Shown in pieces: positions 4,810 to 59,790 of a stretch of DNA of 64,000 nucleotides. Under the pieces are notes generated by a model. The model did no database searches. It saw only the letters and a list, made by a program, of their open reading frames with translations, and had not been told where the DNA came from. Location of the stretch: contig CM022674.1 of NCBI GenBank assembly GCA_012295275.1, positions 8,060,001-8,124,000 on the forward strand, read 5' to 3'. Both the position numbers and the translations under genes were made by a program. The DNA comes from Chrysomallon squamiferum. Its lineage: Eukaryota; Animalia; Mollusca. Within the stretch, counting starts at the first letter, position 1. Each line of letters begins with the position of its first letter.

Positions 4810-11752
<6,943 letters not shown>

Positions 11753-12260
11753 ACTGATACAGACTCTTAAAATTGTTTAAACACCTCGCTGGCATCGCGT
11801 TTTAGAAATATTCCAAAAGACGAAGTCGCACTGACATGTACAGACGAACATTCACGTGAACGGCTTTCTCAAACACATGCACGTACATTGCGCAGTTACA
11901 AGATGAACGGAAAGCAAACAAAAACTGACTACCGACCCATTTCCATCGCTGTTGCTTCTCTAGCGTACGGATGCTAATATTAGCACCTCGCGCAATCTCC
12001 CGGATAAGATTTCAGTAACAGCGGTAAACAACAAAGCGGGTTTTAGAAACAAGTAAAGCTAGTCATTAACGATGGTCACGTGATATAGACTGAAGTACGG
12101 ATAAATAATTAAAGTGCAGGAAGTAAGCTGTCATTAAAAAAAAGAATATGTTTAAACATAGTTTATTTTGTATGTATATCAGTGTTTATATACAGAGGAC
12201 ATTTTATAAAACACGTTTTATATTTCATGTCTGCGTAAGATAGAGTTCTGACTTCATGTG

Positions 12261-12263
<3 letters not shown>

Positions 12264-12327
<64 letters not shown>
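12264..12327. repeat. (GA)n microsatellite
   Basis: Pure GA run between the ARF-like promoter and the caspase A 3' end. Confidence 0.95.
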
Positions 12328-12330
<3 letters not shown>

Positions 12331-12845
12331 AAGTACATTTAGAAAAAAAATTCTAAACTATTTATAATTGGATAAAATACAAATACATGTAGTCTTCACA
12401 TATTTTATTAGTATTTCTAAAAGTTAAAAAAATTAAAAATACAGTACATTAATAAAAAAAAAATATTCAATATATAATTATTTTAATATTAAAGCTTCAT
12501 ATTTAATGACCTGAAAAAACGTCACACGTATAAATTAATTTAAAATTACAAAGTACATCAAACCTTTCACACTACAACTTGTTTCTTGGAAACTGTCGTA
12601 AAAAATTACAAAAATATGTCACCAGATAGATGAAGTTATAAAGCTGAATCCAATATTTTTTGTTCCTCTCTACAACTCGTTTATTAAAAGTTTTCCAATG
12701 CATTCTCCCATGTTGAAAATATAAAGATTCTTGACACATTAGACACTCTGCCACTATTTTAAATAGAACTGTCAGTTATTTTTTTAACCAAGTTTTTTTT
12801 TTCACTGTGATCTTAATCATATACACTGTGCCTTGTATTCATAGT

Positions 12846-15127
12846 TTAAAAGAATATTTTTTTTAAAATCCAACTAAAAATAATGATTATGATGAATATT
12901 ATCATGTCAGCGTAATGTTTCCAAAACCATTCCACTAAGAAAACACTTCCTTCTTTTCCTCCTCTGTAAGAAACATGCCCTGTAACACAGAAAACAAGTT
13001 AAATGTAAAGCTGTAAATAAAATAAATATAATGGTAAAGCTGTTACTTGATAGAAATAAAGTAAGTTAAAATGGTAAAGTTCTAAATAAATTAAACTGCA
13101 AGGTAAAGCTGATACATACAAAACTGAAAATATAATGCAGTAACTAATATTAAAAAGTCATTTATATATATTTTTCTAAAATTTTGTATTCCACATTACA
13201 GAAAAAAAAAAAAGATATAAAAATTAAAATTAAATGGTAAAAAATATCACATAACTTTGGCAGTCTGGCCATTGTGCTGTCCTGTCAAAGCTATTTAATG
13301 TTTTGTATGATTAAAAAACCAAACAACAAACAAACAAACAAATTCGTGGTTTCACTGATTTTATTTTAGTTTCGTATATTATTTATATTACAACTGTAAA
13401 ATGCATCTTTTATTTGTTTTATAAATCATCAAACTATATTCAGCTTAATTCTGTGTTCTTGTTTTATTTCATTTTAGGCATCCAATCTTATTTCATAACA
13501 AAGTATGTATAAAACAAAAGAGAACACTTTAAAAAAAATTGGTTATCATGGTCTATATTCGTGGCATCATCTCTTTGAGGGCAGATTAATTCGCTCTAAA
13601 GTTTCATTTTTTTCAGAATAATGAAGCTATCTGTACACTAGATGTGCAATGTTGAGAAGATGCAAAAATGGCTACATTCAGACATTTTTGTTATTCTGTG
13701 TTATATCTGATAATAAGTCAACAAAAACAACAAAATAATGGCTTTGAATGTCAAAGAATTTTTATCAAGTTATTTATACATGCAGACACAAAAATGTTTA
13801 AATAACAAAATGTATATGAAAAGATAAATGGTATTGTAGTATACTGTTGTTATTTACCTTGTATTGCAAAAATCATGTCACTTTGGTCTGGTCGACAGGT
13901 GATGTTTGACAGCTCCTCACAATTTCCCTGTGCAACATCATCTGCTACAACATCATTACATTGTGAAGCAGAAGCACAGCCCTTGTCCTCAGTACCTGCA
14001 ATTACATCATTAATTTATACACTCTGTATTCTTCTTTTATTTTAATATCAATCTTCTATTGATATTCTAAACCTATACTACAGCTATCTCCATATATTCT
14101 GAAAAGAAATGAATAAAAATAATAAGGAAAAAAGAAGGAACAACAAAGAACGCCTGTATTTAATAAGTGAATCACACCTGAAATAATGGCTGGATGACTT
14201 TCTTGTACTGCGGACATTCCTTCACTCAGAGCTGACTCCATTACTTGTGTGTTTTTATGATCTAAAAAAATAAAAATTAATAAAAATAATAAAAACGGAC
14301 ACATCAGCTGAATGAAAGTTTCAAACTTGAAACTACATGTATTAATCAGAAATTGAATAAAATAAAATAAAATGAAATAAAATAAAATAAATAAATAAAT
14401 AAATAAACAAATACAGAAATAAATTAATAACTAATTAACTAAAGAAGTCAATCAAATCAGTAAGTCAATACATAAAGTAAAAATGAGAAAATAAAGAAAA
14501 ACAAAAGCTGAATAATTGTATCTTACCTGTATTAAATGTGTTATTACCTGGGTTACTTTCTTGTACTGGTACAGGAATCCCTTCTATGCCCTGATACTCC
14601 ATTACTTGACGTTCATCATGATCAGATGACCTCTCTTCTCTCACTTTATATTCATTTTTCCTGATTTCATCAGCACAGTGTTGGTGACCAGTATCAATCA
14701 AACAAGATATAAAATCTTCATATGCCTCTTTTGGTCGTCTGTTCAGATCAGAAAGTAACATCTGAACTTGTTGAGTTCTTGTTTTGCAGGGCTTAAAATG
14801 ATAAATTTCAAAATTATTTCAAACTAATTGTCATCAGTGACAATGTTTATGCAAAGATTCATCTGAATATATCAGCCTCCACAACCAAACAAGATTGTTA
14901 TTTTAAGTTACAAATAAAGCTACAACATGAAACCATAAACAATTACATAGCTCCTTAGTAAATTTCTAAAACATATTTATGTCATAAAAATAAACAAAAT
15001 AAAACAAAACAACCCCCTCCAAAAACCAAACAAAAAATAAATACAATAAAATAAAATAATAAATAAATAAAACAGCTAAAAATAACAACAAATTTTGAAA
15101 AAATAAATGCTAATAATGCTGCTGCTG

Positions 15128-15158
<31 letters not shown>

Positions 15159-15423
15159 ACTACTACTACTACTACTACTACTACTAATAAATAATAAAAA
15201 TGTAAACAAAAAATAAAGGGAATAAATAAATTAAAAGCAGATGTTTAAAAATATTCTTAGTCGTGTGTGATGAAGAGAGAAATAATACCATCATCATAGG
15301 CTCCAACATCATTTCTGTAAAGATTCCTTTAACTAGAAGTTCATTCCAAAGAGTATCTGGTATGATATTCTCTATGAGAAACAGACGAGATAGAAAAAGA
15401 GCCTCTTTCTGAATGTCATCCAT
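12846..15423 (-). CDS. Caspase paralog A: protease-dead CARD protein lacking the large subunit, with a novel hydrophobic C-terminal tail (~251 aa)
   Basis: Exons 15423-15289 (MDDIQKEALFLSRLFLIENIIPDTLWNELLVKGIFTEMMLEPMMM), 14791-14527, 14261-14178, 13995-13858 (GTEDKG...PDQSDMIFAIQ), 12979-12846 (GHVSYRGGKEGSVFLVEWFWKHYADMIIFIIIIIFSWILKKIFF*). The joined frame is open for 756 nt. No SHG or QACRG exons lie between 14178 and 13995. Confidence 0.7.
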
Positions 15424-18796: not shown

Positions 18797-21715
18797 CTAG
18801 TCAGGATTGAAAAACCATTTCTTTGTCAGCTGATTCAGTGGAGAAGGTAAAGTTTTAAAACCTTTTTTATGCTGAAATTCATCAACAATTTTTTTTGTTT
18901 ACCTGAAAACAAACAAACAGAAAAAAAATTAAATGCTTTTCAGAAATATTATTAATGAAACTAATCAAGTATTTGACAAATTTAACTTACTAAATTGAAA
19001 AACAATAATATTAGTGACTAACTTACTAATTTGACAAACAATATTCGTGACAAATTGTCTAATTTGACAAACAACAATATTAGTGACAAATTGATAATCT
19101 GGCAAATTATTAATTAGTTACAAATGTATTGACCAGTTTTTTAATAATTAAACAAAAAATATCATTTGTCCTCCATTCTACAGGGAAATATTTTTTGTTC
19201 ATCTCTACAAGTCTTTTATCAAAGGTTTTCCTATATATTCTCCCATCTTGAAAATATAAAGATTCCTTGACATTAATTTAAATAGAATCACCATTTACTT
19301 TTTCACCACGTTTTCTCTCTCATTATGATCTTAATGATATACACAGTACCATGTATTCCTAGCTCAAGATTATATTAAACTAAAAAGATGACTAAAAGTA
19401 ATGATTACCATGATTAACATGTCAGCTAGATGTTCCTGACGCCATTTCTGTGAGAAAACATCAACCAGGGCATTGATGAAAACACTTCCTTCTTCTTCAT
19501 TTCTGTAAGAAACATATCCTGTAACACAGAAAACAAGTCAAATGTTAAGTTGTAAATAAAATAAATGTAAGGTGAAACTGTTATGTGTCACTACTGACTG
19601 TTTGAATTTAATATTAGTTATTGATTAGTGAATTGAAGTTTACAATCTTCTTTACTCTTATTAAGAGTTAAATGTAAAGCAGAATATATTCAGCATAATT
19701 CTGTGTTCTTGTTTTGTTTCTTTTCAGCCATCCAATCTTATTTCATAACAAAGAATGCATAATAACAAAAGAGAACATTTAAAAAATTTGGCACCATTAG
19801 TTTGACAGAAGATTAATTCGCTCTAAAGTTTCATTTTGTGTTGTCATAAAAATAAAGCTATCTGTACACTAGATATGCAATGCTGTAAAGATGCAAAAAT
19901 GGCTTCATTCAGATATTTTTGTTATTCTGTGTTATATCTGATAATAAGTCAACAAAAACAACAAAATAATGGCTTTGAATTTCAAAGAATTTTTATCAAG
20001 TTATGTATCCATGCAGACACAAAAATGTTTAAATAACAAAATGTTTATGAAAAGATAGATGGTATTGTAGTGTACTGTTGTTATTTACCTTGTGTTGTAG
20101 CATGTGCAAAAATCATGTCACTTTGGTAGTGGCGAGGAGTGATGTTTAACAGCTCCTCACAATTTCCCTGTGCATCAACATCTGTTATCCTCAATAACTG
20201 CAATTACAACATCATTAAATTATACACACTATATTCTTCTTTTAACATTCTTGTATTGATTGATATTCTGAACCTATAAACAGCTACCTCAATATAGTAT
20301 TCCCCCGAATTATTATTATTATTGTCCTACTACTATTACTATTACTGTTATTATCACTATTATTACAACTATTATTTATACATAATCATCATTATCTGTA
20401 TTTTTTATCATTTTTCATTATTTTTAATTTTATTTTATTTTTCATTATAATTTTAGTGATTTGTTTTATTTTAAAATCTGAACCTTTTACTTACAGCTAT
20501 CTCCGTATATTCTTAAATCTTAAAATTATTATTATTATTATTATTATTATTATGTTATTTTTTTTTTTTTTTCACTATTTTTTTATTTTTATTTTTTAAC
20601 AACATTTTACATACCTCCACGACAAGCTTGTATAATAAAGAATTTAGGTTTCCCCTCTAGTTCTGGACACATCCTGTTACCAAACCAACTTTTGAGATCA
20701 TCCACTGTGATGTAGTTGTAAGGTACATTCTCAGACACATATCCATCAGTGCCAAAAATTTTGTCACCATGGTCACCATGTGAAAGAATGACCACTACCA
20801 AAGAATCCACAATTTTGTTGTCTGGATGCTTAGAAAACTCTTTAAGTCGTCTTTCCATTTCCTGTGAGAAATAACATTACTGATTCACACAGAAAGAAAA
20901 CAAAAGAATAATTTCTGAATTTAGAAAATTGACTTTGACACTGAATCACTGCTGAATTTTACTATTATTAATTTAACTTTACTATTATTAATTTTTATAA
21001 AATTTAACTTTGTACAAGGAAAACAACTAGTAACAGGTTAAATTCACTAAAACATAACAGCTTAAATTCTTCAAATTGTTTATTGCTTTTTGAATAATAA
21101 TGAATCCATAGATATAGATGGAAAAATTTAATGTAAATAGTATATAAACATTTTAAAATTCACTTAATAAAATTGAGAATATCTCTTAACATAAGTAATA
21201 ATTTTGAATTCTAATTTTGTTTTATTAAAGGATTGATTAGAAAAATAATAATAATAGTAATAATAATAAAAAGGAACTTTCATACTATGCAACCAAAATG
21301 TTTGCTTTTATATATATATATACATATTTTCTTAAATTCAGACAAATAATTGTATACTTCTGCAGGAAATCAATATTTGTAACTAACCTTAATAAAACAA
21401 AACAACACAACACACACAAAATTAAGAACAATACCTTTGCTTTCAGATCTCTGTCAGAACATACAGAATACCCCAACATAAAAAAGAGTTTTGACAACTT
21501 TTGACAATCAACATCAGTGCCATTACGTTTATCAAGGCTGTCAAAGTTATCATTGTTTACAATGTATACAAAACCCCTTGGTTCAGACTCCATTCTATAA
21601 ACATCCTGAAAAAGAAAGGTATTTTAATATGTATTTTAAAAATGTTATACATTTTGATAGTCACTTTTATGCTTCATTGTCAAATACACTTAATATTTAT
21701 TAATATTAAAGACTA

Positions 21716-21752
<37 letters not shown>

Positions 21753-23284
21753 TAGAAGTAATTTGTGTACTCACATTTCCCAAAACACAATTGTAATGGT
21801 ACGCAACAAAGCTAACTTTAAAGTAAGAATGAAGAATACATAAATATTCTTCTGTACACACACACACACACACACACACATGTGTGTGTGTTATTCTGAA
21901 TTATGTCAGTACAGATACAAACATGAAGTAAGTTTTTCAAATGTCATGACATTAAAATATCTGCTGAATTGATATAATAAATATTTAAAAAATAATTTAA
22001 ATAAATATAAAAATAAAGAAAGAAGAAAAGAGATGAATAAAAGTAATAAGGAAAAAAGAAGGAACAACAAAGAAAACCTGTATTTAATAAGTGAATCACA
22101 CCTGAAATACTTGTTGGATGACTTTCTTGTACCGGGGACATTCCTTCACGTTGATCACACTCCATTACATGTGTGTCTTCAAAAAAAAAAAAAAAAAAAA
22201 AAAAAGACATCATCTGAATAAAAGTATCAAACTTGAAACTACACGTATTAATCAGAAATTAAATAAATAAATAAATGTATTAAAATGTAAAAATAAATAA
22301 TTTAGTAAATAACTAAATAAAATAAAATAAAATAAACAAATACAGAAATAAATAAATAAATAAATAAATACTGAAATAAATTAATAACTAACTAACTAAG
22401 TAAATAAATAAAAAAATCGATAAATAAAGTAAAATAAGGAGAAAATAAAGAAAAACAAAAGTTGAATAATTGTATCTTACCTGTATTAAATGTGTTATTA
22501 CCTGGGTCACTTTCTTGAACTGGAGCAGGAATCCCTTCTTGTCGTTCACCATGACCAGATGCCCTCTCTTGTCTCACTTTATATTCATGTTTCCTGATTT
22601 CATCAGCACAGTGTTGGTGACCAGTATCAATCAAACAAGATATAAAATCTTCATATGCCTCTTTTGGTCGTCTGTTCAGATCAGAAAGTAACATCCGAAT
22701 TTGTTGAGTTCTTGTTTTGCAGACCTTGGAAAGTTAAATTTCTTAATTATTTCAAATTATTTGTCATCAAACATTATGACAATGTTATGCAGATTCACAT
22801 GAATATATCAGCCTCCATGCAACCAAACAAGACTGTTATTTTACTTGTCATACTTTAAGTTACAAATAAAGCTATAACATGAAACCATAAACAAGTACAT
22901 GTAACATAGCACCTCAGTAAATTTCTAAAACATATTTCTATCATAAAAACAAACGAAATAAAAATAACAAACCCCCCCCAAAAAAAATAATAAATTGTAA
23001 AAAAAGAAAGAAAGGAAAAAGAAAAAGACAAAAATGAAGAAAATAAAATTGTAAATAACTAATAAGAAAGAAATAAAGAAACGAAATAAATAAATTAAAA
23101 GCAGATGTGCAAACATATTTTAAGTCGTGTTTGATGAAGAGAGAAATAATACCATCATAGGCTCCAACATCATTTCTGTAAATATTCCTTTAACTAGAAG
23201 TACATCCCAAAGAGTATCTGGTATGATTTTCTGCACAAGAAATAGTCTAGATCGTAGAAGAGCCTCTTTCTGAATGTCATCCAT
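18797..23284 (-). pseudogene. Caspase paralog B: full exon set with intact SHG/QACRG but frameshifts in exons 7 and 9 (pseudogene or truncated product)
   Basis: Exons 23284-23153, 22724-22481, 22176-22102 (original acceptor deleted; in-frame cryptic AG), 21815-21775, 21605-21435, 20861-20615 (LSHG, QACRG), 20197-20089 (109 nt versus 144 in copy D; reads VIEDNRC*), 19518-19409, 18902-18797 (8-A run versus 7 in copies C/D; reads VNKKNC*). Confidence 0.7.
18975..19105. repeat. Degenerate ~32-35 bp tandem repeat in caspase intron 8 (paralogous copy at about 31450-31580)
   Basis: Recurrent TAATTTGACAAACAATATTAGTGAC-like units. Confidence 0.65.
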
Positions 23285-23713: not shown

Positions 23714-26336
23714 AATAACAATAATAATAATTATTAATAATTTTCAGATAAATCATAAATAATTAATTTCAGTTATGTTTAGCCTACTAATAGCTTAAGG
23801 AGATATTTTGTCTTTTACTAGTAAATTATTTCCTTTTAGGGGAAATTCTTCCATCGACGAGGTAGAAAATAGATTACACCTGAAGGAATGGACACAGTGT
23901 TGCAGCTATAGGCTTCGTAACTTTAAAACAAATTACGATGAAGAAAGTTGTTCATTTATTATCTGTGGTAAATTTGAAACAGTTGTGGCCATCTCGGTTG
24001 ATGTGCAGTTTGTTATTGCAGTTGGCTGAATACATTTCTTTCAGGAGCGTTTGTTTTATTTTTTTATTTTACAGTAAGAACATTCATCATTTTTAGTTAA
24101 TGTTAATAGTGAACGTAAATACTAACTTTTGAAAGAAGCAAGTTACGATTTAGATCTTGTACACCCATTGTGATATTTAATTAAGTTACATCTTAAAGGA
24201 TTAGAAAAAAGTTAAAATATCCAGAAATGCGAAGATCCAGAGTTTCATAGTCTGGAACGACTTGTGTATTGTTATCTTCTGGGACTATTTCTCCATCTGC
24301 AGAGTCAGTTATGTCTCACCGCTAGAGCTGTGACATCTGTTCAGTGATGCACGTTAGAGATTCTTTTCTGTTAATTAACTAACTGCTCCATCAAACAGTC
24401 CCAGTCGGTCCGCTCGGTGACTGATGTGGGTGATGAGGGGTGCGACATGGACTGAATACTCGCCATATTTTTGACCCACGGAAAAGTCTAACTCGACTTC
24501 TTTGATACAAAAACAAACTGAGTTTTGTAAAAGTGTAATTACTGTAATATAAAGTAGATATCCTTTATTTAAACAAAGCTAAACATTAGGCAAACAAAGT
24601 GTAAACAAACTGCACTTAGGTGCTGCCAGGTACACGATAACATGTGTAGACGAAGTAACTGGAGGTTTGGTCATACTGAATTTGCCCCCTAGTATATTCA
24701 GATTTCCCCCGCTTCTGGTCTAGTGATAGAAGTGACTTCTCCTTATTTTTCTAGTCCAGCGTAACTCTGGATGGGTAAATCTTCCTGTTTACACAGTGGA
24801 TTTGATGAAAATACTTCTGTTAATTTTATTTTTTAGAAAATTTGATGCATTGCTGTTATCTTAGGTCGCTCTACCGTTACGACTAATTCAATAAAACAAT
24901 GCAAAATGTGCGCCATATTTATGCAGACTTCTGCTTTTGACATTGAATCTAAATGAGCGAATTCACTTAGGTATCAACACATTTATTATTAGTACTACTA
25001 CTACTATTTTATTTATTTATTTATTTTTACATTTAATTTCTTTTAGAAGGTCAAAGAAAGTTCAGACTACAGCTGCAGGACCTATTGTTAAAGTCAGGAA
25101 TCTCTTGTATAAATGTCTGATAAAGTCTCGAAGCAGAGCTGATTACGACAGCAATTACTGATTTAAATAATTATTACTGATGAATACGTTTTTATAAACT
25201 TTTTTTTTTTTTTTTTTTAAAGATAGATATTGATATTAAACACATAAACAAGATAAATGTATTATGAACCGTATTTTACCTTTTATAATAATGGTACAAG
25301 ACTTTGGGATATCAAAATTTGATGGGTGTTTTGTTTTGTTAGTAAATCATTTAATCTGTGTTGATTTTGTTTTGTACAGATGGGTATGTAGAGACTTTTC
25401 AGGTATGGACATTTGTTAGAAATGTTATATCTTTATACATATTTTCTTAAAACTTAATTATATCTATGCTAGTTTATTCATACCTGAATTAGTCAATGTA
25501 CACAATCCCTTTACAATTAATGTTATTTCGTTTCTTTTTTGTTCAAGCAAACATTCACATTCCTCCATCTGTAGAACTGTTAGTATTATAATCATTTACA
25601 TATATGATAGCAAGGCATGTTTGTTTATTTATGTAGTATTATTGTTGTTGCATTTTTTCTTTCTAACATATTATTATTTTTTTGTTGTTTTAGTTTAATC
25701 CTCATTATAACCATTTCAATCATAAAACTATATTACTTTATATGACTGAGTTAACTGTCCTAGTATGTTTTACTTTAACATTTAAAAAACACACTGAAGA
25801 GATCACATTGCTAGAACGTTAACGCCATGTCAGAATTTAGATTTGTTGATTGAGTATACTCTGTAGTACTGAAATTCTTAACTATTTATAAGTGGATACA
25901 ATTTGCAAATACATGGAGTCTTCACATATTGTATTATTATCATTATCATTATTATTATATTGTATTTTTTTAAATTAAAAAAACAAACAAAAAAAACCGA
26001 CGAAGCAATATTAATAAAAAAAGAAAGATTTAATACATAATTTTGTTTAACATATTATTTTAATATTGGTTTCATATTTTATTTACATTTTGTTATTATT
26101 TTTGGCAATCAATTATTGTTTTTTTTCTTTAGCTTTAAAATGACATTTATTGCGCCTAGAAAACAAAAACACACATTTTTAGTTAAAGAGGTTCTAGTGT
26201 TGACCTGTGTCAGGATTGAAAAACCATTTCTTTGTCAGCTGATTTACTGGAGAAGCTAAAGTTTTAAAACCTTTTTTATGCTGAAATTCATCAACAATTT
26301 TTTTGTTTACCTGAAAACAAACAAACAGAAAAAGAA

Positions 26337-28297
26337 TTAAATGCTTTTCAGAAATATCTTTTGACAATCAACATCAGTGCCATTACGTTTATCAAGGCTG
26401 TCAAAGTTATCATTGTTTACAATGTATACAAAACCCCTTGGTTTAGACTCCATTCTATAAGCATCCTGAAAAAGAAAGGTATTTTAAAAGAAAGGTACAT
26501 TTTGATATTTACGATGTATTTGAAGTGCTTTTCAAGCTTTATTGTCATATACTGTTAATATTTACTAATATTATAGATTAAATATATATATGTATATAAA
26601 ATAATAATACAAAATTTATCAGTAATTTATAAAACGGTCATGTACTCACATTTCTCAAAGCACGTCGTTCATAGAATACAGAACTAACTGCAAATAAGAA
26701 TGATGCATACAAAAATATTCCTCTTTATTTTAAAGTGCAAATTCATTTAAAAAGGAAGATATATATATATATATATATTATATACACACACACAGACACA
26801 CACAATCATACAAAAACACACACACACACACACAGACACACACACACACACACACATATATTCATATATTATTCTGTATTATGTTAACATAGATACAAAC
26901 TTGAAGCAAAGTTTTTCAAAAGAAAATGTCTTCTGAATAGATATAATAAACATGAAAATAAATTAAAACAATAATAATTTAAATAAAGAAAGAAAGTAAG
27001 AAAGAAAGAAGAAAAGAAATGAATAAAAGTAATAAGGAAAAAAGAAGGAACAACAAAGAAAACCTGTATTTAGTAAGTGAATCAAACCTGAAATACTTGT
27101 TGGATGACTTTCTTGTACCGGGGACATTCCTTCATGTTGATCACACTCCATTACATGTGTGTCTTCATGATCTAAAAAAAAATCAAAGAAAAAAGACATC
27201 ATCTGAATAAAAGTATCAAACTTAAAATTACATGTATTAATCAGAAATTAAATAAATAAATAAATAAATAAATGTATTAAAATGTAAAAATAAATAAGTT
27301 AGTAAATAAATAAATAAGATAGTAAATAAATAAATAAAATAAAATAAACAAATACAGAAATATATAAATTAATAAATAAATAAATCTGAAATAAATTAAT
27401 AACTATCTAAGTAAATAAATCAGAAAATCGATAAATAAAGTAAAATAAGGAGAAAATAAAGAAAAACAAAAGTTGAACAATTGTATCTTACCTGTATTAA
27501 ATGTGTTATTACCTGGGTCACTTTCTTGAACTGGAGCAGGAATCCCTTCTTGTTGTTCATCATGACCAGATGACCTCTCTTGTCTCACTTTATATTCATG
27601 TTTCCTGATTTCATCAGCACAGTGTTGTTGACCAGTATCAATCAAACAAGATATAAAATCTTCATATGCCTCTTTTGGTCGTCTGTTCAGGTCAGAAAGT
27701 AACATCCGAATTTGTTGAGTTCTTGTTTTGCAGACCTTGGAAAGTTAAATTTCTTAATTATTTCAAATTATTTGTCATCAAACATTATGACAATGTTATG
27801 CAGATTCACATGAATATATCAGCCTCCATGCAACCAAACAAGACTGTTATTTTACTTGTCATACTTTAAGTTACAAATAAAGCTATAACATGAAACCATA
27901 AACAATTACATGTAACATAGCCCCTCAGTAAATTTCTAAAACATATTTCTATCATAAAAACAAACGAAATAAAACAAAACAAACCCCCCCACCCCCCAAA
28001 AAAAAAATTGTAAAAAAAGAAAGAAAGGAAAAAGAAAAAGCTAAAGATGTAGAAAATAAAATTGTAAATAACTAATAAGAAAGAAATAAAGAATGGAAAT
28101 AAATAAATTAAAAGCAGATGTGCAAACATATTTTAAGTCGTGTTTGATGAAGAGAGAAATAATACCATCATAGGCTCCAACATCATTTCTGTAAATATTC
28201 CTTTAACTAGAAGTACATCCCAAAGAGTGTCTGGTATGATATTCTGTACGAGAAATAGCGTAGATTGAAGAAGAGCCTCTTTCTGAATGTCATCCAT
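26337..28297 (-). CDS. Caspase paralog C: CARD-only truncated product (~208 aa) caused by a ~2.2 kb internal deletion; may be a pseudogene
   Basis: Exons 28297-28166, 27735-27492, 27171-27088, 26687-26650, then exon 5 from 26465 broken at 26358/26357 and fused to the end of intron 8, reading ...NGTDVDCQKIFLKSI* (stop 26337). The old last exon is still present at about 26194-26310. Confidence 0.6.
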
Positions 28298-31259: not shown

Positions 31260-34045
31260 CTAGTGTTGACCTGTGTCAGGATTGAAAAACCATTTCTTTG
31301 TCAGCTGATTTACTGGAGAAGCTAAAGTTTTAAAACCTTTTTTATGCTGAAATTCATCAACAATTTTTTTGTTTACCTGAAAACAAACAAACAGAAAAAG
31401 AATTAAATGCTTTTCAGAAATATTATTAATGAAACTAATCAAGTATTTGACAAATTTAACTTACTAAATTGAAAAACAATAATATTAGTGACTAACTTAC
31501 TAATTTGACAAACAATATTCATGACAAACTGACTAATTTGACAAACAACAACATTAGTGACAAATTGATAATCTGGCAAATTATTAATTAGTTACAAATG
31601 TATTGACCAGTTTTTTAATAATTAAACAAAATATATCATTTGTCCTCCATTCTACAGGGAAATATTTTTTATTCATCTCTACAACTCTTTTATCAAAGGT
31701 TTTCCTATATATTCTCCCATCTTGAATATATAAAGATTCCTTGACATTAATTTAAATAGAATCACCATTTACATTTTCATCACGTTTTCTCTCTCATTAT
31801 GATTTTAATGATATACACAGTACCTTGTATTCCTAGCTTAAGATTATATTAAACTAAAAAGATGACTAAAAGTAATGATTACCATGGTTAACATGTCAGC
31901 TAGATGTTCCTGATGCCATTTCTGTGAGAAAACATCAAACAGGGCATTGATGAAAACACTTCCATCTTTTTCATTTCTGTAAGAAACATATCCTGTAACA
32001 CAGAAAACAAGTCAAATGTTAAGTTGTAAATAAAATAAATGTAAGGTGAAACTGTTATGTGTCACTAATACTGTTTGATAAGTCAATCAAAACAACAAAA
32101 TAACGGCTTTGAATTTCAAAACTTTTTTATGAAGTTATTTATCCATGCATACACAAAAATACTTTAAATAACAAAATGTATATGAAAAGGTAAATGGTAT
32201 TGTAGTGTACTGTTGTTATTTACCTTGTGTTGTAGCATGTGCAAAAATCATGTCACTTTGGTCTGGGCGAGAGGTGATGTTTAACAGCTCCTCACAATTT
32301 TCCTGTGCAACATCTCTTACAAGGCTGTTATTTTGTGAAGTAGAAGATAAGGCCGCATCCTCAGTAACTGCAATTACATCATTAAATTATACACACTATA
32401 TTCTTCTTTTAACAGCAGTCTTGTATTGATTGATATTCTGAACCTATACAACAGCTACCTCAATATACTGTATTCCGAAATCTTAAAATTATTATTATTA
32501 TTACCGTTACTATTACTACTACTGTTACTGTTATTATCACTATTACAAATACTATTACAATTATCATAATCATAATGATTATTTTTATTATCATAATCAT
32601 CATTATCATCATTATTTTTATTTTATTTATCATTATAATTTTATTATTTGTTTTAATTTTAAAATCTAGAAACATTTTATCTTATTAATATTAATATTAC
32701 TACTACTATTACTGTTATTATTAATATTACAATGATTATTACTACTATTATCATCATCATCATCATCATTATTATTATTGTTATTATTATTTTTTTTTTT
32801 TTACTATTATAATTTTATTTTAATTTTTAAATTTTGAAACAACATTTACATACCTCCACGACAAGCTTGTATAATAAAGAGTTTTGGTTTGCCCTCTAGT
32901 TCTGGACACATCCTGTTACCAAACCAACTTTTGACGCTGTCCACTGTGATGTAGTTGTAAGGTACATTCTCAGACACATATCCATCAGTGCCAAAAATTT
33001 TGTCACCATGGTCACCATGTGAAAGAATGATCACTACCAAAGAATCAACAATTTTGTTGTCTGGGTGCTTAGAAAACTTTTTAAGTCGTATTTCCATTTC
33101 CTGTGAGAAATAACATAAATGATTCATACAGAAAGAAAACAAAAGAATAATTTCACTATTATTATTTATTTTTAAATTTACATTTGTACAAGGAAAACAA
33201 CCTGTACTGATTTTGAAATGGTGCACTGAAAATAACTAGTAACTGGTTAAATTCATAAAACATAGTAAACATCTGAAATTATTTTTGCTTTCTAAATAAA
33301 TAAGAGTCCATAGACATATAATGTAAATGGTATATGAACTTTTTAAAATCCCACTTAATAAAAGTGAGAATATCTGTTAATATATGTAATAATTTTGAAT
33401 TCTAATAATAAAAAGGAACTTTCATACTATGCAACCAAAATGTTTCCTTTTATAAAATACATACATATACATATTTTCTTAAATTCAGACAAATAATTAT
33501 ATAGTTCTGCAGGAAATCAATATTTGTAACTAACCTTAATAAAACAAAACAACACAACACACACAAAATTAAGAACAATACCTTTGCTTTCAGATCTTTG
33601 TGAGAAATTACAGAATAGCCGAACATAGAAAAGAGTTTTAACAACTTTTGACAATCAACATCAGTGCCATTACGTTTATCAAGGCTGTCAAAGTTATCAT
33701 TGTTTACAATGTATACAAAACCCCTTGGTTTAGACTCCATTCTATAAGCATCCTGAAAAAGAAAGGTATTTTAAAAGAAAGGTACATTTTGATATTTACG
33801 ATGTATTTGAAGTGCTTTTCATGCTTTATTGTCATATACTGTTAATATTTACTAATATTATAGATTAAATATATATATGTATATAAAATAATAATACAAA
33901 ATTTATCAGTAATTTATAAAACGGTCATGTACTCACATTTCTCAAAGCACGTCGTTCATAGAATACAGAACTAACTGCAAATAAGAATGATGCATACAAA
34001 AATATTCCTCTTTATTTTAAAGTGCAAATTCATTTAAAAAGGAAG

Positions 34046-34088
<43 letters not shown>

Positions 34089-35646
34089 GACACACACAAT
34101 CATACAAAAACACACACACACACACACAGACACACACACACACACACACATATATTCATATATTATTCTGTATTATGTTAACATAGATACAAACTTGAAG
34201 CAAAGTTTTTCAAAAGAAAATGTCTTCTGAATAGATATAATAAACATGAAAATAAATTAAAACAATAATAATTTAAATAAAGAAAGAAAGTAAGAAAGAA
34301 AGAAGAAAAGAAATGAATAAAAGTAATAAGGAAAAAAGAAGGAACAACAAAGAAAACCTGTATTTAGTAAGTGAATCACACCTGAAATACTTGTTGGATG
34401 ACTTTCTTGTACCGGGGACATTCCTTCACGTTGATCACACTCCATTACATGTGTGTCTTCATGATCTAAAAAAAATCAAAGAAAAACGACATCATCTGAA
34501 TAAAAGTATCAAACTTGAAATTACACGTATTAATCAGAAATTAAATAAATAAATAAATAAATAAATGTATTAAAATGTAAAAATAAATAAGTTAGTAAAT
34601 AAATAAATAAATAAATAAGATAGTAAATAAATAAATAAAATAAAATAAAGAAATACAGAAATATACAAATTAATAAATAAATAAATCTGAAATAAATTAA
34701 TAACTAACTAACTAAATAAATCAATAAATAAATACTGAAATAAATTAATAACTATCTAACTAAGTAAATAAATCAGAAAATCGATAAATAAAGTAAAATA
34801 AGGAGAAAATAAAGAAAAACAAAAGCTGAACAATTGTATCTTACCTGTATTAAATGTGTTATTACCTGGGTCACTTTCTTGTACTGGAGCAGGAATCCCT
34901 TCTTGTCGTTCATCATGACCAGATGACCTCTCTTGTCTCACTTTATATTCATGTTTCCTGATTTCATCAGCACAGTGTTGTTGACCAGTATCAATCAAAC
35001 AAGATATAAAATCTTCATATGCCTCTTTTGGTCGTCTGTTCAGGTCAGAAAGTAACATCCGAATTTGTTGAGTTCTTGTTTTGCAGACCTTGTAAAGTTA
35101 AATTTCTTAATTATTTCAAATTATTTGTCATCAAACATTATGACAATGTTATGCAGATTCACATGAATATATCAGCCTCCATGCAACCAAACAAGACTGT
35201 TATTTTACTTGTCATACTTTAAGTTACAAATAAAGCTATAACATGAAACCATAAACAAGTACATGTAACATAGCACCTCAGTAAATTTCTAAAACATATT
35301 TCTATCATAAAAACAAACGAAATAAGAATAACAAACCCCCCCCCAAAAAAATAATAAATTGTAAAAAAAGAAAGAAAGGAAAAAGAAAAAGATAAAAATG
35401 AAGAAAATAAAATTGTAAATAACTAATAAGAAAGAAATAAAGAAACGAAATAAATTAAAAAAGCAGATGTGCAAACATATTTTAAGTCGTGTTTGATGAA
35501 GAGAGAAATAATACCATCATAGGCTCCAACATCATTTCTGTAAATATTCCTTTAACTAGAAGTACATCCCAAAGAGTATCTGGTATGATTTTCTGCACAA
35601 GAAATAGTCTAGATCGTAGAAGAGCCTCTTTCTGAATGTCATCCAT
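31260..35646 (-). CDS. Caspase paralog D: intact CARD-containing initiator caspase (caspase-2/9-like), ~428 aa
   Basis: Nine in-phase exons 35646-35515, 35088-34845, 34465-34382, 33974-33937, 33752-33582, 33100-32854, 32367-32224, 31992-31883, 31376-31260, totalling 1287 nt. Motifs: YRMESKPRGFVYIVNN, KRNGTDVD, ILSHG, GKPKLFIIQACRG, PDQSDMIFAHATTQG, VSYRN..GSVFI, LTKKWFFNP. Confidence 0.93.
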
Positions 35647-44168: not shown

Positions 44169-44536
44169 TTGCATTGTATGTATGTTATGTATAAGGGTAG
44201 TTTTGTTCATATATCATGAAAATTGTGTGTGTGTGCATGTTCTTTCTTACCTGTTCCATATATAGGTTTTATTCGCTGGGAGACATCGAGAGAACTTGCA
44301 AGATGAAGCTGTCCTGACTGTCGCAGGGCGTTGATGAACAGCGCCACGGCATTGTGACCGCCATCCTCCACGTACTTGAGCAGCGTCGTGTTGCGCTGCA
44401 GCTGTGACTTCTCCTGACAGATGTCAGTGACAACATCGCTGGTGAGGACGCCATGCTGGAGAAGGTAGTCGAAGATAAGTTCAATGTCAAGGCTCTCTAT
44501 AAGATCTTGATGGTTTGCTAACTGCTCTGTTAGCAT
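42665..44536 (-). CDS. CARD-domain protein with a disordered middle region and a probable TRADD-N-like C-terminal domain
   Basis: CARD exon 44536(ATG)-44251 (MLTEQLANHQDLIESLDIELIFDYLLQHGVLTSDVVTDICQEKSQLQRNTTLLKYVEDGGHNAVALFINALRQSGQLHLASSL), 27-nt microexon 43983-43957 (GYWEKRRHK), and last exon from 43709; all phase-1 GT-AG junctions. As assembled the frame stops at 42703. One extra G at 42733-42736 would extend it to a stop at 42665. Confidence 0.8.
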
Positions 44537-45842
44537 TATCAACAGGCTGTCAGTACCTGAAACATTATCAACAGGCTGTCAATACATGAAACATTATCAA
44601 CAGACTGTCAGTTCCAGAAACATTATCAACAGACTGTCAGTTCCAGAAACATTATCAATAGGCTGTCAATACATGAAACATTATAAACAGGCTGTCAGTT
44701 CTAGAAACATTATCAACAGACTGTCAGTACCTAAAACATTATCAACAGGCTGTCAATACATGAAACATTATCAACAGACTGTCAGTTCCAGAAACATTAT
44801 CAACAGACTGTCTACATGAAACATTATCAATAGGCTGTCAATACATGAAACATTATCAACAGGCTGTCAGTTCTAGAAACATTATCAACATTCTGTCAGT
44901 ACCTGAAACATTATCAACAGGCTGTCAGTTCCAGAAACATTATCAACAGACTGTCTACATGAAACATTATCAACAGGCTGTCAATATCTGAAACATTATC
45001 AACAGAGTGTCAGTACCTGAAACATTATCAACAGACTGTCAGTACCTGAAACATTATCAACAGGCTGTCAGTATCTGAAACATTATCAACAGACAATGAG
45101 TACTTGAAACATTATCAACAGGCTGTCAGTACCTGAAACATTATCAACAGGCTGTCAGTACCTGAAACATTATCAACAGACAATGAGTACTTGAAACATT
45201 ATCAACAGGCTGTCAGTACCTGAAACATTATCAACAGGCTGTCAGTATCTGAAACATTATCAACAGACAATGAGTACTTGAAACATTATCAACAGTGTCA
45301 GTACTGAAACATTATCAACAGGCTGTCAGTACCTGAAACATTATCAACAGACTGTCAGTACCTGAAACATTATCAACAGACTGTCAGTACCTGAAATATT
45401 ATCAACAGGCTGTCAGTACCTGAAACATTATCAACAGGCTGTCAGTACCTGAAACATTATCAACAGACTGTCAGTACCTGAAATATTATCAACAGACTGT
45501 CAGTACCTGAAATATTATCAACAGGCTGTCAGTACCTGAAACATTATCAACAGACAATGAGTACTTGAAACATTATCAACAGACTGTCAGTACTGAAACA
45601 TTATCAACAGACTGTCAGTATTGAAACATTATCAACAGGCTGTCAGTACCTGAAACATTATCAACAGACAATGAGTATTTGAAACATTATCAACAGACTG
45701 TCAGTACCGAAACATTATCAACAGACTGTCAGTACTGAAACATTATCAACAGACAATGAGTACTTGAAACATTATCAACAGACTGTCAGTACCGAAACAT
45801 TATCAACAGACTGTCAGTACCTGAAATATTATGAACAGGCTG
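44534..45842. repeat. 29-bp minisatellite, about 45 copies, overlapping the splice acceptor and start codon of the CARD gene
   Basis: Unit CATTATCAACAGGCTGTCAGTACCTGAAA with variants (GACAATGAGTACTT, CAATACAT, GTTCCA). Period 29 (ATTATC at 44535 and 44564). Confidence 0.97.
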
Positions 45843-49812: not shown

Positions 49813-50304
49813 ATCACCAGTTATTTTTTTCATGAACTGGTTTGTGTATAAAGTGTAATGTCAGCTAACTCTTGCTGAAAATAAAGTCATAAACATTCAA
49901 ATTTAATTAGATTTTATTGTTCCATGTACGTGTTAAAGTGTTAACTGATAAAACTAACTTGACATGTTTTTTTCTACTGTTATTACCTGCAACATGAAAT
50001 ATAGGTTTAGTGTATTGTTTACACACTCAGAATGTGTGTGTGTGTGTGTGTATGGGTAGGTGAACACAAACACACACACACACACAAATTATAACCACAT
50101 ATAAACAGATGTATATTTTTGTTAATAAACTTATAAGGAGTAAAAAAAAAAAAAAAACGGAATCACACACACACACAAAAAAGTGTAATACATGATTTTG
50201 CTATAACTATTTTAATGTTCAAACAATAATGATATGTGACAAATAGATGGTAATTTATTCCTCAGTTAATTTTGCACCTGTCTGATTTAAAATTTAAAAC
50301 AGTT

Positions 50305-50545
50305 ACTTTCACTTTACATAGTCAGGTAATGATATAAAATACCAAAACATTAAAACTGATATTTCACTTTACATATTTAGGTAAATGATTTAATATATGA
50401 AAACATTAAAACTGATATTTCACTTTACAGATTCAGGTGAAGTATTTAATATGCGAAGACATTAAAATTGATGTTTCACTTTACATCTTCAGGTAAATGA
50501 TTTAATTTATGAAAACATTAAAGACAGACGTTTCACTTTATTTAT
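50305..50545. repeat. Degenerate ~56-bp tandem repeat, about 4-5 copies
   Basis: TTTCACTTTA recurs at about 50307, 50362, 50418, 50474 and 50531, with AAACATTAAAACTGAT-like sequence between. Confidence 0.8.
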
Positions 50546-52459
50546 TCAGTGACTGAAATATCATATTCCAAAATATTAAAGTAACATTTTAATAATATTT
50601 ACATAAATTTGTACCTGTCAGCAATTCCCACGTTATAAATCTGCTATTCACAGATTACAAAGTTATTATGCTGTTCCTTTCTGTGTCTACTGGCTGTGAT
50701 ATAACTTTTGTATGAAATGCTGTGTATTATCAGTGATTATTATTACATGAAATCATGTTAAACGGAGTTAGCCAGATTATATTTGGATTTGTGAAATAAG
50801 GTCAAGGCTTCATGAATAACAGAATGTACATAATCAGATTAAAGAGTATCCATTAGATTTTTGCTTGAGTACAAGATTTGAGCATTAACATAATCTTTTA
50901 ACTATAGAGAGGGCATAACATTACAGTATCATTTTCAGTCAACAAAAGTACTTGTATTTTAATTACTGCTGTTGAGAATTTTAACATTTTTGTTCTTTCT
51001 GTTACTGTAACGAAGTTACAATAACCTCACCTGTTTAAAAACATACCTGTGGTGTGGAATACTAATGATGTAATGTACCTGTAAGGATAACAAAAGGCCT
51101 AAACACTTTGAAGTAACTGCTTTGTTTTTCTCATAATTCACCTTAGCTAATTAATAACACAATACAGCATTATATGACATGTGGGTAAAGAAGCTGCCAT
51201 TTTTATTCCTTTCTGTGTATATAATCATATTTCACAAAGAAAAAAAATAATAGTATAATAATAATAATAAGCGCACACACACACACATACACACAGACAA
51301 AAACAAAGGTAGAGAGTTTCACTTTTTCAGTTATTTGCAATGGTGATGAAAGTAAACATGCTAAAGTGTTACTACAAAACTGCTTATTATTAGATTATAT
51401 AATATATCTATCACACAGACACAGTCACACACAGACACAGACACACACACACGTATACACACACATGCTTATTTCTAATACACTGGTCTCAAGAAGTAAA
51501 TAAATAGTTCATTCAATATATTCAGATTAATAATAATAAAAAATGAATAAAACAAATAAATAAATAAATAACCATAATATTAATAACCACACAAAATATT
51601 AATTTTGTATTATGACTGAGCACAATGAATGAGACAGCTTTTCATAAATTGTTTATATGGTCTGGAAAAACAAGTTGTTTTTCTATTTCCATGAATCTGT
51701 TTTGGAAACACTATAAAATTACTGATTAGAAATAGAAGCCTTCTATACGAATGACTTTAATCCTAAAACTGTCACTGTGGATTTGTGTCAAGTTTTGTTT
51801 TATGGTTTCTAAATAGTTTTTACAATTTTAGCTACATGAGTATGCTGTGTTCATCAGAAATGGATGTGAACTGGCTTGTGTGTCTTAACATATCAATAAA
51901 ATATGTACGTAAAAAAAAAATAGAACTTAAAAAAACTAAACTAAACTAAATAAATAATTAAATAATAATAATAATAATAAATAAATAAATATTTTAAAAA
52001 ACCACACAAAAAAACAACAAAAAAAACAAAAAAAACAACCCAATCATAAATAAAAAATAAATCTAAGAAACTAAATTAATAATTCCAATAACAATAATGA
52101 TTATAATAATAATAATAATAATAATAGTAATAATAATTAATATATATGTCAATTACACACACACACACACACAAACACAGAGACATATTAAAGAAACAAC
52201 AGAAAAAAAAGCTATATTGCCTTTCTTTCTTCAATGTCTATTGCTCAACTTAAAAGACCTCATTAGGAAAAGTCTGAACAATAGGTCTTTGTCTCTGTAA
52301 AGAGAAGAAATTCCACAGCATCTCAGTATATAGTTATCACTGTTACAATGTAAGGAGCCTGGTTTGTGGAATGCAAACTAAACATGTGTCTCAACATGGC
52401 AAAGTAACAAGAAAAAATGTAACTCATGTAACAGCATTCTTTCAACACAAATTAGCATC

Positions 52460-53403
52460 TTTAACTCTTTATTACCTATAAATATAACTATTTTAACTCA
52501 TTATTACCTATAAATATAACTATTTTAACTCATTATTAGCTGTATCAATAACTATTTTAACTCATTATTACCTACATACATAACTATTTTAACTCATTAT
52601 TACCTATATACATAACTATTTAAACTCATTATTACCTACATACATAACTATTTTTACTCATTATTACCTATATACATAACTATTTTTACTCATTATTACC
52701 TATATACATGACTATTTTAACTCATTATTACCTATAAACATAACTATTTTAACTCATTATTACCTATATCAATAACTATTTTAACACATTATTACCTATA
52801 TCAATAACTATTTTAACTCATTATTACCTACATACATAACTATTTTTACTCATTATTACCTACATACATAATATTTTTACTCATTATTACCTATATACAT
52901 AACTATTTAAACTCATTATTACCTGTATCAATAACTATTTTAACTCATTATTACCTATATACATAACTATTTTAACTCATTATTACCTATATCAATAACT
53001 ATTTTAACTCATTATTACCTATATACATAACTATTTTAACTCATTATTACCTATATCAATAACTATTTTAACTCATTATTACCTATATACATAACTATTT
53101 TAACTCATTAGTAGCTGTATACATAACTATTTTAACTCATTATTACCTGCATACGTAACTATTTTAACTCATTATTACCTGTATACATAACTATTTTAAC
53201 TCATTATTAGCTATATACATAACTCTTTTAACACATTATTACCTATATCAATAACTATTTTAACACATTATTACCTATATACATAACTATTTTAACTCAT
53301 TATTACCTGTATACATAACTATTTTAACTCATTATTACCTATATACATAACTATTTTAACTCATTATTACCTATATACATAACTATTTTAAGTCATTATT
53401 ACT
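52460..53403. repeat. 32-bp AT-rich minisatellite, about 29 copies
   Basis: Unit TTTTAACTCATTATTACCTATATACATAACTA with point variants. Confidence 0.97.
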
Positions 53404-59283: not shown

Positions 59284-59790
59284 TGTGCCATTGATACTGA
59301 CGTAAATTACGTTAGCGATTTATAGATCAGTGTGCCGTTGATACTGACGTAAATTACGTTAGCGATGTGTAGATCAGTGTGCCGTTGATACTGACGTAAA
59401 TTACGTTAGCGATTAATAGATCAGTGTACGGTTGATACTGACGTAAATTACGTTAGCGATGTGTAGACCAGTGTGCCGTTGATACTGACGTAAATTACGT
59501 TAGCGATGTGTAGATCAGTGTGCCGTTGATACTGACGTAAATTACGTTAGCGCTATATAGATCAGTGTGCGGTTGATACTGACGTAAATTACGTTAGCAA
59601 TGTGTAGATCAGTGTGCCGTTGATACTGACGTAAATTACGTTAGCGATGTGTAGATCAGTGTGCCGTTGATACTGACGTAAATTACGTTAGCGCTATATA
59701 GATCAGTGTGCGGTTGATACTGACGTAAATTACGTTAGCAATGTGTAGATCAATGTGTCACTGATACTGATGTAAATTGCATTAGTGAGC
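59284..59790. repeat. 47-bp CpG-rich minisatellite, about 10.5 copies, with internal palindrome
   Basis: Unit GTGCCGTTGATACTGACGTAAATTACGTTAGCGATGTGTAGATCAGT; TTGATACTGA at 59291, 59338, 59385 ... 59714. Degenerate related sequence at 59150-59280. Confidence 0.96.

Follow-up and report, generated by a model that had tools for sequence, protein, structure and literature searches.

What becomes of a caspase duplicate that has lost its protease and has nevertheless kept an open reading frame? The question is raised by a 64,000-nucleotide (nt) stretch of Chrysomallon squamiferum DNA (assembly GCA_012295275.1, contig CM022674.1, positions 8,060,001-8,124,000, forward strand; hereafter the window, to which all other coordinates refer), which is AT-rich animal DNA (~30% GC) and carries four tandem copies of a CARD-caspase gene (A, B, C and D), all on the minus strand. 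An initial annotation had described copy A as a remodelled duplicate of copy D, whose CARD, TRAF-binding motif and C-terminal tail anchor had converged on the layout of MAVS. Our analysis indicates that the lesions of copy A are real, that the sequence evidence for a selected, intron-derived anchor is good and that the analogy with MAVS is overstated. We consider the chances about even that copy A is a caspase duplicate making a membrane-anchored protein of 251 amino acids (aa), the CARD of which would bind, cap or sequester the CARD of copy D.

Copy D has all the attributes of an active CARD-caspase (Peptidase C14), i.e. the catalytic His, the Cys of the QACxG motif, and both the large and the small subunit. 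The features of copy D, and of copy A relative to it, are as follows.

31260..35646, minus strand: copy D, intact; nine exons, 428 aa, His251, QACRG at residues 301-305
15289..15423, minus strand: copy A exon 1; CARD residues 1-45, with R11L and D27N relative to D and gastropod relatives
14527..14791, minus strand: copy A exon 2; remaining CARD (R55Q) and linker; 21 nt not present in B, C or D
14178..14261, minus strand: copy A exon 3; linker that repeats the end of exon 2 through an internal duplication; AVQES in place of the PVQES of D
14100..14101, minus strand: deletion junction; intron 3 fused to intron 6, exons 4-6 with the catalytic His and Cys gone
13858..13995, minus strand: old exon 7, now the fourth exon of copy A; encodes the inter-subunit linker and the beginning of the small subunit; 9-nt deletion, 3-nt insertion; weak acceptor
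12846..12979, minus strand: last coding exon of copy A, formed by old exon 8 and 45 nt of old intron 8; 24 nt deleted; stop codon at 12848-12846
12889..12890, minus strand: site of the lost exon-8 donor; AT in A against GT in B and D
12680..12685, minus strand: AATAAA, 161 nt past the new stop; GATAAA in B and D
12414..12652, minus strand: 3' deletion region, lying where old exon 9 was removed

The five exons of copy A give a 251-aa frame, and all four introns of the model are bordered by GT and AG. Searches with tblastn and blastn found no match to exons 4, 5 and 6 of D in copy A, and homology changes from intron 3 to intron 6 at 14101/14100, between two phase-1 exons, which confirms the deletion proposed in the initial annotation. 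Its other structural claims were also borne out: (i) both the 9-nt and the 24-nt in-frame deletions were found in the small-subunit exons, the latter lying between two TGTTTTC repeats, (ii) the exon-8 donor is destroyed (ATC followed by ATAATC, at 12891) and exon 9 of D has no match in copy A, and (iii) the frame ends in the predicted hydrophobic stretch and Lys-Lys, produced by clustered substitutions. Four more length differences from D were detected (three of 3 nt and one of 21 nt), all of them in-frame. With exons 4-6 and 9 gone, copy A is not an active CARD-caspase, and its last two exons gave no Peptidase_C14 match at E-values up to 1. The AATAAA motif was rejected as evidence for a new 3' end: it carries little weight because D has its own AATAAA nearby. 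An origin of copy A as a second haplotype or a mis-assembly was also rejected, given its 7-17% noncoding divergence from the sibling copies.

The strongest signal in copy A comes from the end of its last coding exon.

12849..12938, minus strand: remodelled tail (residues 222-251); 29 differences from D among 87 alignable bases; 19 codons changed, all 19 non-synonymously
12864..12905, minus strand: hydrophobic core, M233-L246; 14 uncharged residues with a mean Kyte-Doolittle value of 3.26, followed by Lys-Lys; predicted helix

The divergence of this tail exceeds that of noncoding DNA (209/2461 bases, 8.5%; Fisher p 2e-10), of the 3' flank (30/174, 17%; p 0.003) and of synonymous sites elsewhere in the gene (14%; p 6e-4), while in the rest of the coding sequence 71 of 636 bases differ from D. 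When the whole coding sequence was scanned for its densest 87-base window, the test gave p 1e-4, and the exclusively non-synonymous nature of the altered codons a simulated p of 0.046. The changes are moreover directional: seven codons now encode Ile, two encode Trp (after two and three base changes, respectively) and a stop codon has become Phe, while the Ser-Leu that follows the core in D is Lys-Lys in A. Of the 9 sites in old exon 8 that could be polarised, the Gigantopelta orthologue shares the D state at 8, compared with 10 of 18 elsewhere in the gene (counts past residue 236 were dropped, the alignment being non-homologous there), so the tail changes arose on the A line. Taken together, the tail looks like the product of selection on a translated, intron-derived anchor. 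A single error-prone repair event was considered as the source of the cluster and rejected, since the 7-base repeat would explain the 24-nt deletion, not 29 scattered residue-changing substitutions.

The course of this remodelling may be envisaged as follows. With exons 4-6, exon 9 and the exon-8 donor lost, the frame would have read into old intron 8. T-rich introns are expected to give hydrophobic read-through tails (bioRxiv 2022.07.20.500724), and loss of the donor alone in D would yield a 12-residue extension with a mean of 1.81 over 19 residues, i.e. a ready, mildly hydrophobic starting point. Selection would then have raised hydrophobicity, removed the first in-frame stop, and added two Trp residues and Lys-Lys. 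The resulting tail of A reaches a 19-residue mean of 2.52 at residues 233-251 (the best window elsewhere in A reaches 1.1), a value attained by 29 random changes with a simulated p of 0.001-0.003. AlphaFold2 predicted one helix for the last exon alone (residues 9-42 of 43, mean predicted local distance difference test score 84). By Kyte-Doolittle windows and the AlphaFold2 model, copy A is thus predicted to have a single hydrophobic helix within ~30 residues of its C-terminus and no other hydrophobic segment, as is typical of tail-anchored proteins. The probable tail anchor of the initial annotation is therefore supported. The fear that another length of the adjoining A-run in raw reads would abolish the Lys-Lys ending proved unfounded, because runs of 7, 8, 9 and 10 all leave at least two basic residues after the core. 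Just before the core, residues 222-235 (12938-12897) resemble an amphipathic helix, of the kind that lies on a membrane surface, with Glu224, Lys228 and Asp232 at positions i, i+4 and i+8 amid aromatics.

The reading frame as a whole also appears to have been preserved. All six coding length differences between A and D are multiples of 3, whereas 14 of the 55 indels in noncoding DNA are (for five such differences, p about 1e-3). Had indels accumulated on the A line as fast as in noncoding DNA, 3 to 6 of them would have been expected to shift the frame, and the probability of seeing none is 0.05 to 0.002. The 272 coding bases past the deletion junction contain no stop and no frameshift, and in simulations the frame stayed stop-free after 50-70 random substitutions in 2-6% of trials. 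These results uphold the proposed frame-preserving remodelling, although an open frame could instead mean that copy A remained a working caspase until late.

Several observations weigh against an anchored CARD protein. The product of copy A is a model built from the sequence, and the database searches, a check suggested in the initial annotation, revealed no tail-bearing orthologue. A word-based search with exon 2 of A gave no match; a profile search of 1.84 billion representatives gave 36 matches, only two of which reach 1.6 in their last 45 residues; and a CARD-profile search gave four matches, all full-length caspases and none of them A-like. The two that reach 1.6, P0018 (a 684-aa multi-CARD protein) and P0038 (a 160-aa piece), were rejected, as neither has the layout of A. 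All these negatives are weak, because neither A nor D was among the matches and the species seems to be absent from the collections. The ratio of non-synonymous to synonymous substitution rates (dN/dS) between A and D lends little help: the value for the CARD (0.55, p 0.27) does not support purifying selection, and neither that for the gene outside the tail (0.77, p 0.44) nor that for the tail only (2.9, p 0.12) differs significantly from 1, the latter because the tail has only 14 synonymous sites. Moreover, the tail simulations were designed only after the tail had been seen, and the uncharged core comprises just 14 residues (17-19 if Asp232 or both Lys are tolerated), which is short for spanning a bilayer. 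At the R55Q site of the CARD a Lingula relative also has Gln, which means that the change is tolerated in the wider family. Hydrophobic read-through is not peculiar to A, since four of the eight introns of D give at least 1.6 when read through and intron 5, at 2.94, exceeds the tail of A; such tails are, in addition, often degraded (bioRxiv 2022.07.20.500724). Hydrophobic read-through has a side to it that concerns the intact gene as well: translation past the donors of D introns 3 (34381-34257) and 5 (33581-33450) adds 41 and 43 residues with scores of 2.03 and 2.94, and retention of either intron could thus produce anchored CARD isoforms of D.

It might accordingly be argued that copy A is a decaying pseudogene, with an open frame that is due to luck and a hydrophobic end that is ordinary T-rich read-through, at most a degradation signal. 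The hydrophobic read-through of D introns and the broken sibling copies B and C fit such a view, as does the dN/dS of the whole gene (1.02). A ratio near 1 had been named in advance as a reason to abandon the anchored protein, and formally this is what was obtained; the figure is nonetheless misleading, as it averages the non-tail and tail values given above. Neutral decay does not resemble the cluster of residue-changing substitutions in the tail, and it leaves the six in-frame length changes and the lack of a stop unexplained. Furthermore, random read-through within the window matched the hydrophobicity of A in only 1.7% of starts, and in 0.24% when a basic end was also required. We regard decay as improbable.

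A more serious difficulty concerns splicing at the fused intron, where the deletion joined a pyrimidine run to an AG and so created an acceptor that was overlooked in the initial annotation.

14073..14100, minus strand: new acceptor; AG at 14100-14099 after a pyrimidine run; 169-aa product, stop at 14075-14073

By a matrix built from only 10 sites of the window, the junction acceptor (14098) reaches 5.6 and the modelled one at 13995 reaches 0.3; the former has 10 pyrimidines among 12 positions and presents the first AG past the donor, with an intron of 79 nt; its use would lose the tail, which also counts against the anchored product. The tail may thus have been selected once, the deletion of exons 4-6 may have come last, and the new acceptor may now divert splicing, so that the locus mostly gives a 169-aa soluble CARD-only product, the stop of which lies upstream of another intron, or a decaying transcript. 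A single genome does not reveal which lesion came first, and the dN/dS of old exon 7 (1.06) is in keeping with such a history. On the other hand, introns of D, A and the neighbouring ARF gene (15 measured) have lengths of 182-878 nt, all of them above 79 nt; the homologous acceptor of D is likewise weak (-2.4), though the intact caspase requires it; and the coding bases past the junction remain undamaged. Skipping of old exon 7, exon 3 or both leaves the tail in frame, so that, together with the intron lengths, a tail-bearing product may still be made. A bypassed tail is, in our estimation, unlikely, though it deserves to be taken seriously.

If the anchored 251-aa protein is made, where would it reside, and does it resemble MAVS? 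Its tail charge of +2 is within the range of mitochondrial and shared tail-anchored proteins (PMC5450235), while the combination of this charge with a hydrophobicity of 2.5-3.3 provides mixed cues that lean, by the standards of the same source, towards the endoplasmic reticulum (ER). A mitochondrial location should therefore not be assumed, and the predicted anchor is more likely to be found in the ER than in mitochondria. The TRAF-type motif on which the comparison with MAVS partly rests is located in the linker.

14555..14569, minus strand: PVQES motif, residues 120-124; fits the published TRAF-binding consensus; inherited from the parent caspase

The initial annotation had made this motif part of the remodelled layout. 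It is not a change relative to D: PVQES is already present twice in intact D, through the internal duplication of the end of exon 2, and once in A, where the second copy is AVQES. It also occurs in P0015, a 122-residue piece from another species, and a QE[S/T] word is found in the linker of 7 of 11 members of the D clade. PVQES appears to be a family feature, possibly functional, outside the remodelling. The CARD is equally ancestral: it is complete, its profile spans the full caspase-9 CARD (E 3e-16), and among 25 structure matches at E-values up to 1 the best were caspase-9 CARD structures, with no MAVS chain. PF00619 was the sole Pfam match of A exon 2 (below the curated cut-off, as a half domain) and the only one of the full-length relatives P0001 and P0016, with no match to the CARD_2 domain of the RIG-I/MAVS type in either case. 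Two of the three parts of the supposed MAVS layout are thus inherited, and the claim of convergence is not supported; what stands of the membrane-tethered adaptor or decoy is such a role towards the parent caspase.

An antiviral adaptor on mitochondria, passing signals from RIG-I-like receptors to TRAFs, could be built like copy A, with a CARD followed by PVQES and a hydrophobic C-terminus bearing Lys-Lys, and the tail charge would be compatible. Vertebrate MAVS and oyster CgMAVS share with copy A an N-terminal CARD, a TRAF-type motif and a C-terminal hydrophobic segment with a basic flank. However, the CARD of A belongs to another subfamily, its motif is caspase-inherited, and it has neither a proline-rich region nor a Death domain; its anchor is shorter and more hydrophobic than that of MAVS, at a level favouring the ER (PMC5450235), and there is no sign of RIG-I-like receptor binding. 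Oyster MAVS comprises a CARD, a Death domain and a transmembrane segment, and bound TRAF6, not TRAF2 or TRAF3; molluscs possess a separate MAVS (PMC5557890). We consider a MAVS-like function very improbable.

How might the CARD of copy A then act on its parent? The CARDs of A and D are identical at 83 of 96 sites (86%) and differ at 13, and are thus less alike than the "near-identical" of the initial annotation. The changes derived in A at conserved charged residues are R11L, D27N and R55Q. These losses had not been noted in the initial annotation. R55, which aligns with caspase-9 R56, is conserved as Arg in copies B, C and D, and likewise by 9 of the 10 relatives covering the site, while R13 of the CARD aligns with caspase-9 R13; both caspase-9 residues belong to an arginine surface that serves in filament formation and in the binding of Apaf-1 (PMC13626777). 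Copy A keeps R13 and loses the R56 equivalent, and its CARD has 11 basic and 16 acidic residues, compared with 15 of each in D. We infer that the CARD of A is one-sided. Having lost one arginine of the basic surface and become net acidic, it could accept the basic surface of a partner and would pass assembly on poorly. Copy C shows the reverse pattern (R56 equivalent kept, R13 and R11 lost by R13T and R11Q), and is possibly a second one-sided decoy.

The same acidity could be read in the opposite sense, with copy A as a membrane platform on which clustered acidic CARDs seed the assembly and activation of D, partly replacing Apaf-1. A net acidic CARD that has lost basic-surface residues resembles the Apaf-1 side of the pair formed with caspase-9 (PMC3775265, PMC13626777), molluscs have lost Apaf-1 and CRADD was undetected in Gigantopelta aegis (PMC11463336), and A retains a TRAF-type motif of the consensus through which TRAFs activate human caspase-2 (PMC6043850). 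Yet copy A lacks any domain for sensing or oligomerisation, it has also lost Asp27, which 9 of 10 relatives share, and the known caspase-derived CARD-only duplicates are inhibitors in vivo, so that a platform seems rather doubtful to us. In the old inter-subunit linker (13960-13920) the Asp before VAQ is kept and neighbouring Asp residues have been gained in A; a caspase might cut copy A here, between CARD and anchor, the choice of site being our deduction. Combining these elements, selection on intron read-through and on one CARD face may have produced a tail-anchored, one-sided CARD that seeds the parent caspase at a membrane in an Apaf-1-less lineage, with caspase cleavage at the linker Asp residues releasing the CARD from its anchor in a feedback switch; we put this forward as a speculative and rather unlikely scheme.

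Short isoforms of two caspases, caspase-9b and caspase-2S, keep the CARD, lose catalysis through dropped exons and are dominant negative. These are soluble splice isoforms, whereas copy A is a gene in its own right, in which the deletions are fixed, the small subunit is broken and the tail is new. Closer parallels are CARD16 (COP), CARD17 (INCA) and CARD18 (ICEBERG), which arose by CASP1 duplication and inhibit CASP1; like A, they are protease-less tandem duplicates of a CARD-caspase adjoining their parent, in a locus with pseudogenes, and CARD16/17 keep a CARD that is 81-97% similar, against 86% in copy A (PMC11630849, PMC3775265). They have about 90-110 residues and no anchor described in the accessible parts of these sources, whereas A has 150 further residues and the intron-derived hydrophobic tail. 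Copy A also has an independent origin and a different parent caspase. CARD17 acts by capping. By analogy with this group, the anchored CARD of A would cap or sequester that of D at a membrane. As a tandem duplicate with shared exons and introns and 8.5% noncoding divergence, with a complete CARD and no protease domain, A resembles the CARD-only decoys, except that such decoys are soluble and comprise little beyond the CARD, which does not apply to the 251-aa model and is approached by the 169-aa alternative. CARD19 (BinCARD-2) is also a small CARD protein with one membrane segment and a cytosolic CARD; unlike A, it is not described as caspase-derived in the portion available, its segment is central, and its distal C-terminus is needed for mitochondrial targeting (PMC8997538). 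Overall, copy A would work most like a CARD-only decoy, with an outline resembling MAVS or CARD19 and membership in neither.

Among the literature matches listed there was no caspase-derived anchored CARD (the supplements of the bioRxiv paper, outside the search, might list intron-derived anchors). That paper proposes the read-through route, by which T-rich noncoding tails may specialise an N-terminal function at membranes (bioRxiv 2022.07.20.500724); in the present locus the states before (the intron of copy D) and after (copy A) adjoin and the substitutions between them can be counted. The route has thus been proposed in print and rarely caught with both states in one locus. If expressed as modelled, copy A would be a countable case of an intron-made membrane anchor tuned by selection, with the ancestral state next door, as well as a caspase-derived CARD decoy outside primates, and the sole anchored one among the literature searched. 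It bears on the way in which mollusc CARD-caspases are switched on without Apaf-1, and since truncated copies A and C have each lost a different conserved arginine of one CARD surface, a direct decoy-versus-activator test is possible.

The two remaining copies of the array are much younger (1-6% from D), yet their frame or splicing is already damaged, which makes the open frame of copy A less likely to be due to luck.

18797..23284, minus strand: copy B; exon-3 acceptor gone; exon 7 shorter by a net 35 nt; one additional A in exon 9
26194..28297, minus strand: copy C; the stretch between mid exon 5 and intron 8 is deleted (26358/26357); 204 or 208 aa depending on the model

The frameshift in exon 7 of copy B leads to a stop shortly past QACRG (285 aa with exon 3 skipped); with the CARD and the large subunit including QACRG retained, B looks like a short caspase isoform or a young pseudogene. 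Its lost exon-3 acceptor and extra exon-9 A sit in homopolymers and are possibly assembly errors. Exon 1 of copy C (28297-28166, minus strand) is 6% from D, and the adjoining intron 1 only 2.6%.

The closest relatives of the parent gene are the CARD-caspases of Gigantopelta aegis (XP_041378168, P0001) and Haliotis, all of which are full-length and have no hydrophobic tail, unlike the truncated, tail-bearing copy A. The catalytic exon of D is 63% identical to P0001, and a 19-protein tree grouped the two (support 100/98) within a clade that includes Haliotis, Mytilus and Aplysia proteins and leaves the caspase-2-like P0005, P0006 and P0009 outside. This placement makes a gastropod the most probable source of the window. 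P0001 is named "Casp.2b" in the supplement of PMC11463336; our tree is too small to separate caspase-2b from caspase-Y for this protein. P0062, an isoform (X2) of Haliotis asinina caspase-9-like, departs from the family at a point matching the exon 8/9 boundary of D; its C-terminus is non-hydrophobic, and its protein sequence suggests read-through of the same donor in a relative.

Beyond the array, homologues of the inter-copy flank extend past copy A (7630-12414), with no caspase exon. About 7 kb upstream of D, on the same strand, lies another CARD gene (44578-42703, minus strand), with one frame matching Pfam CARD (E 7e-14) and a 343-residue frame without a Pfam match; its product is possibly an adaptor for the caspase. 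A 29-bp tandem array (44534-45842) is located at its 5' side. An ARF-family GTPase gene (6787-4810, minus strand; Pfam Arf, E 2e-18) and a weak match to F-actin capping protein beta (63264-63052, minus strand; E 8e-4) were also identified, along with minisatellites at 50294-50549 (period 56), 52460-53402 (period 32) and 59284-59785 (period 47).

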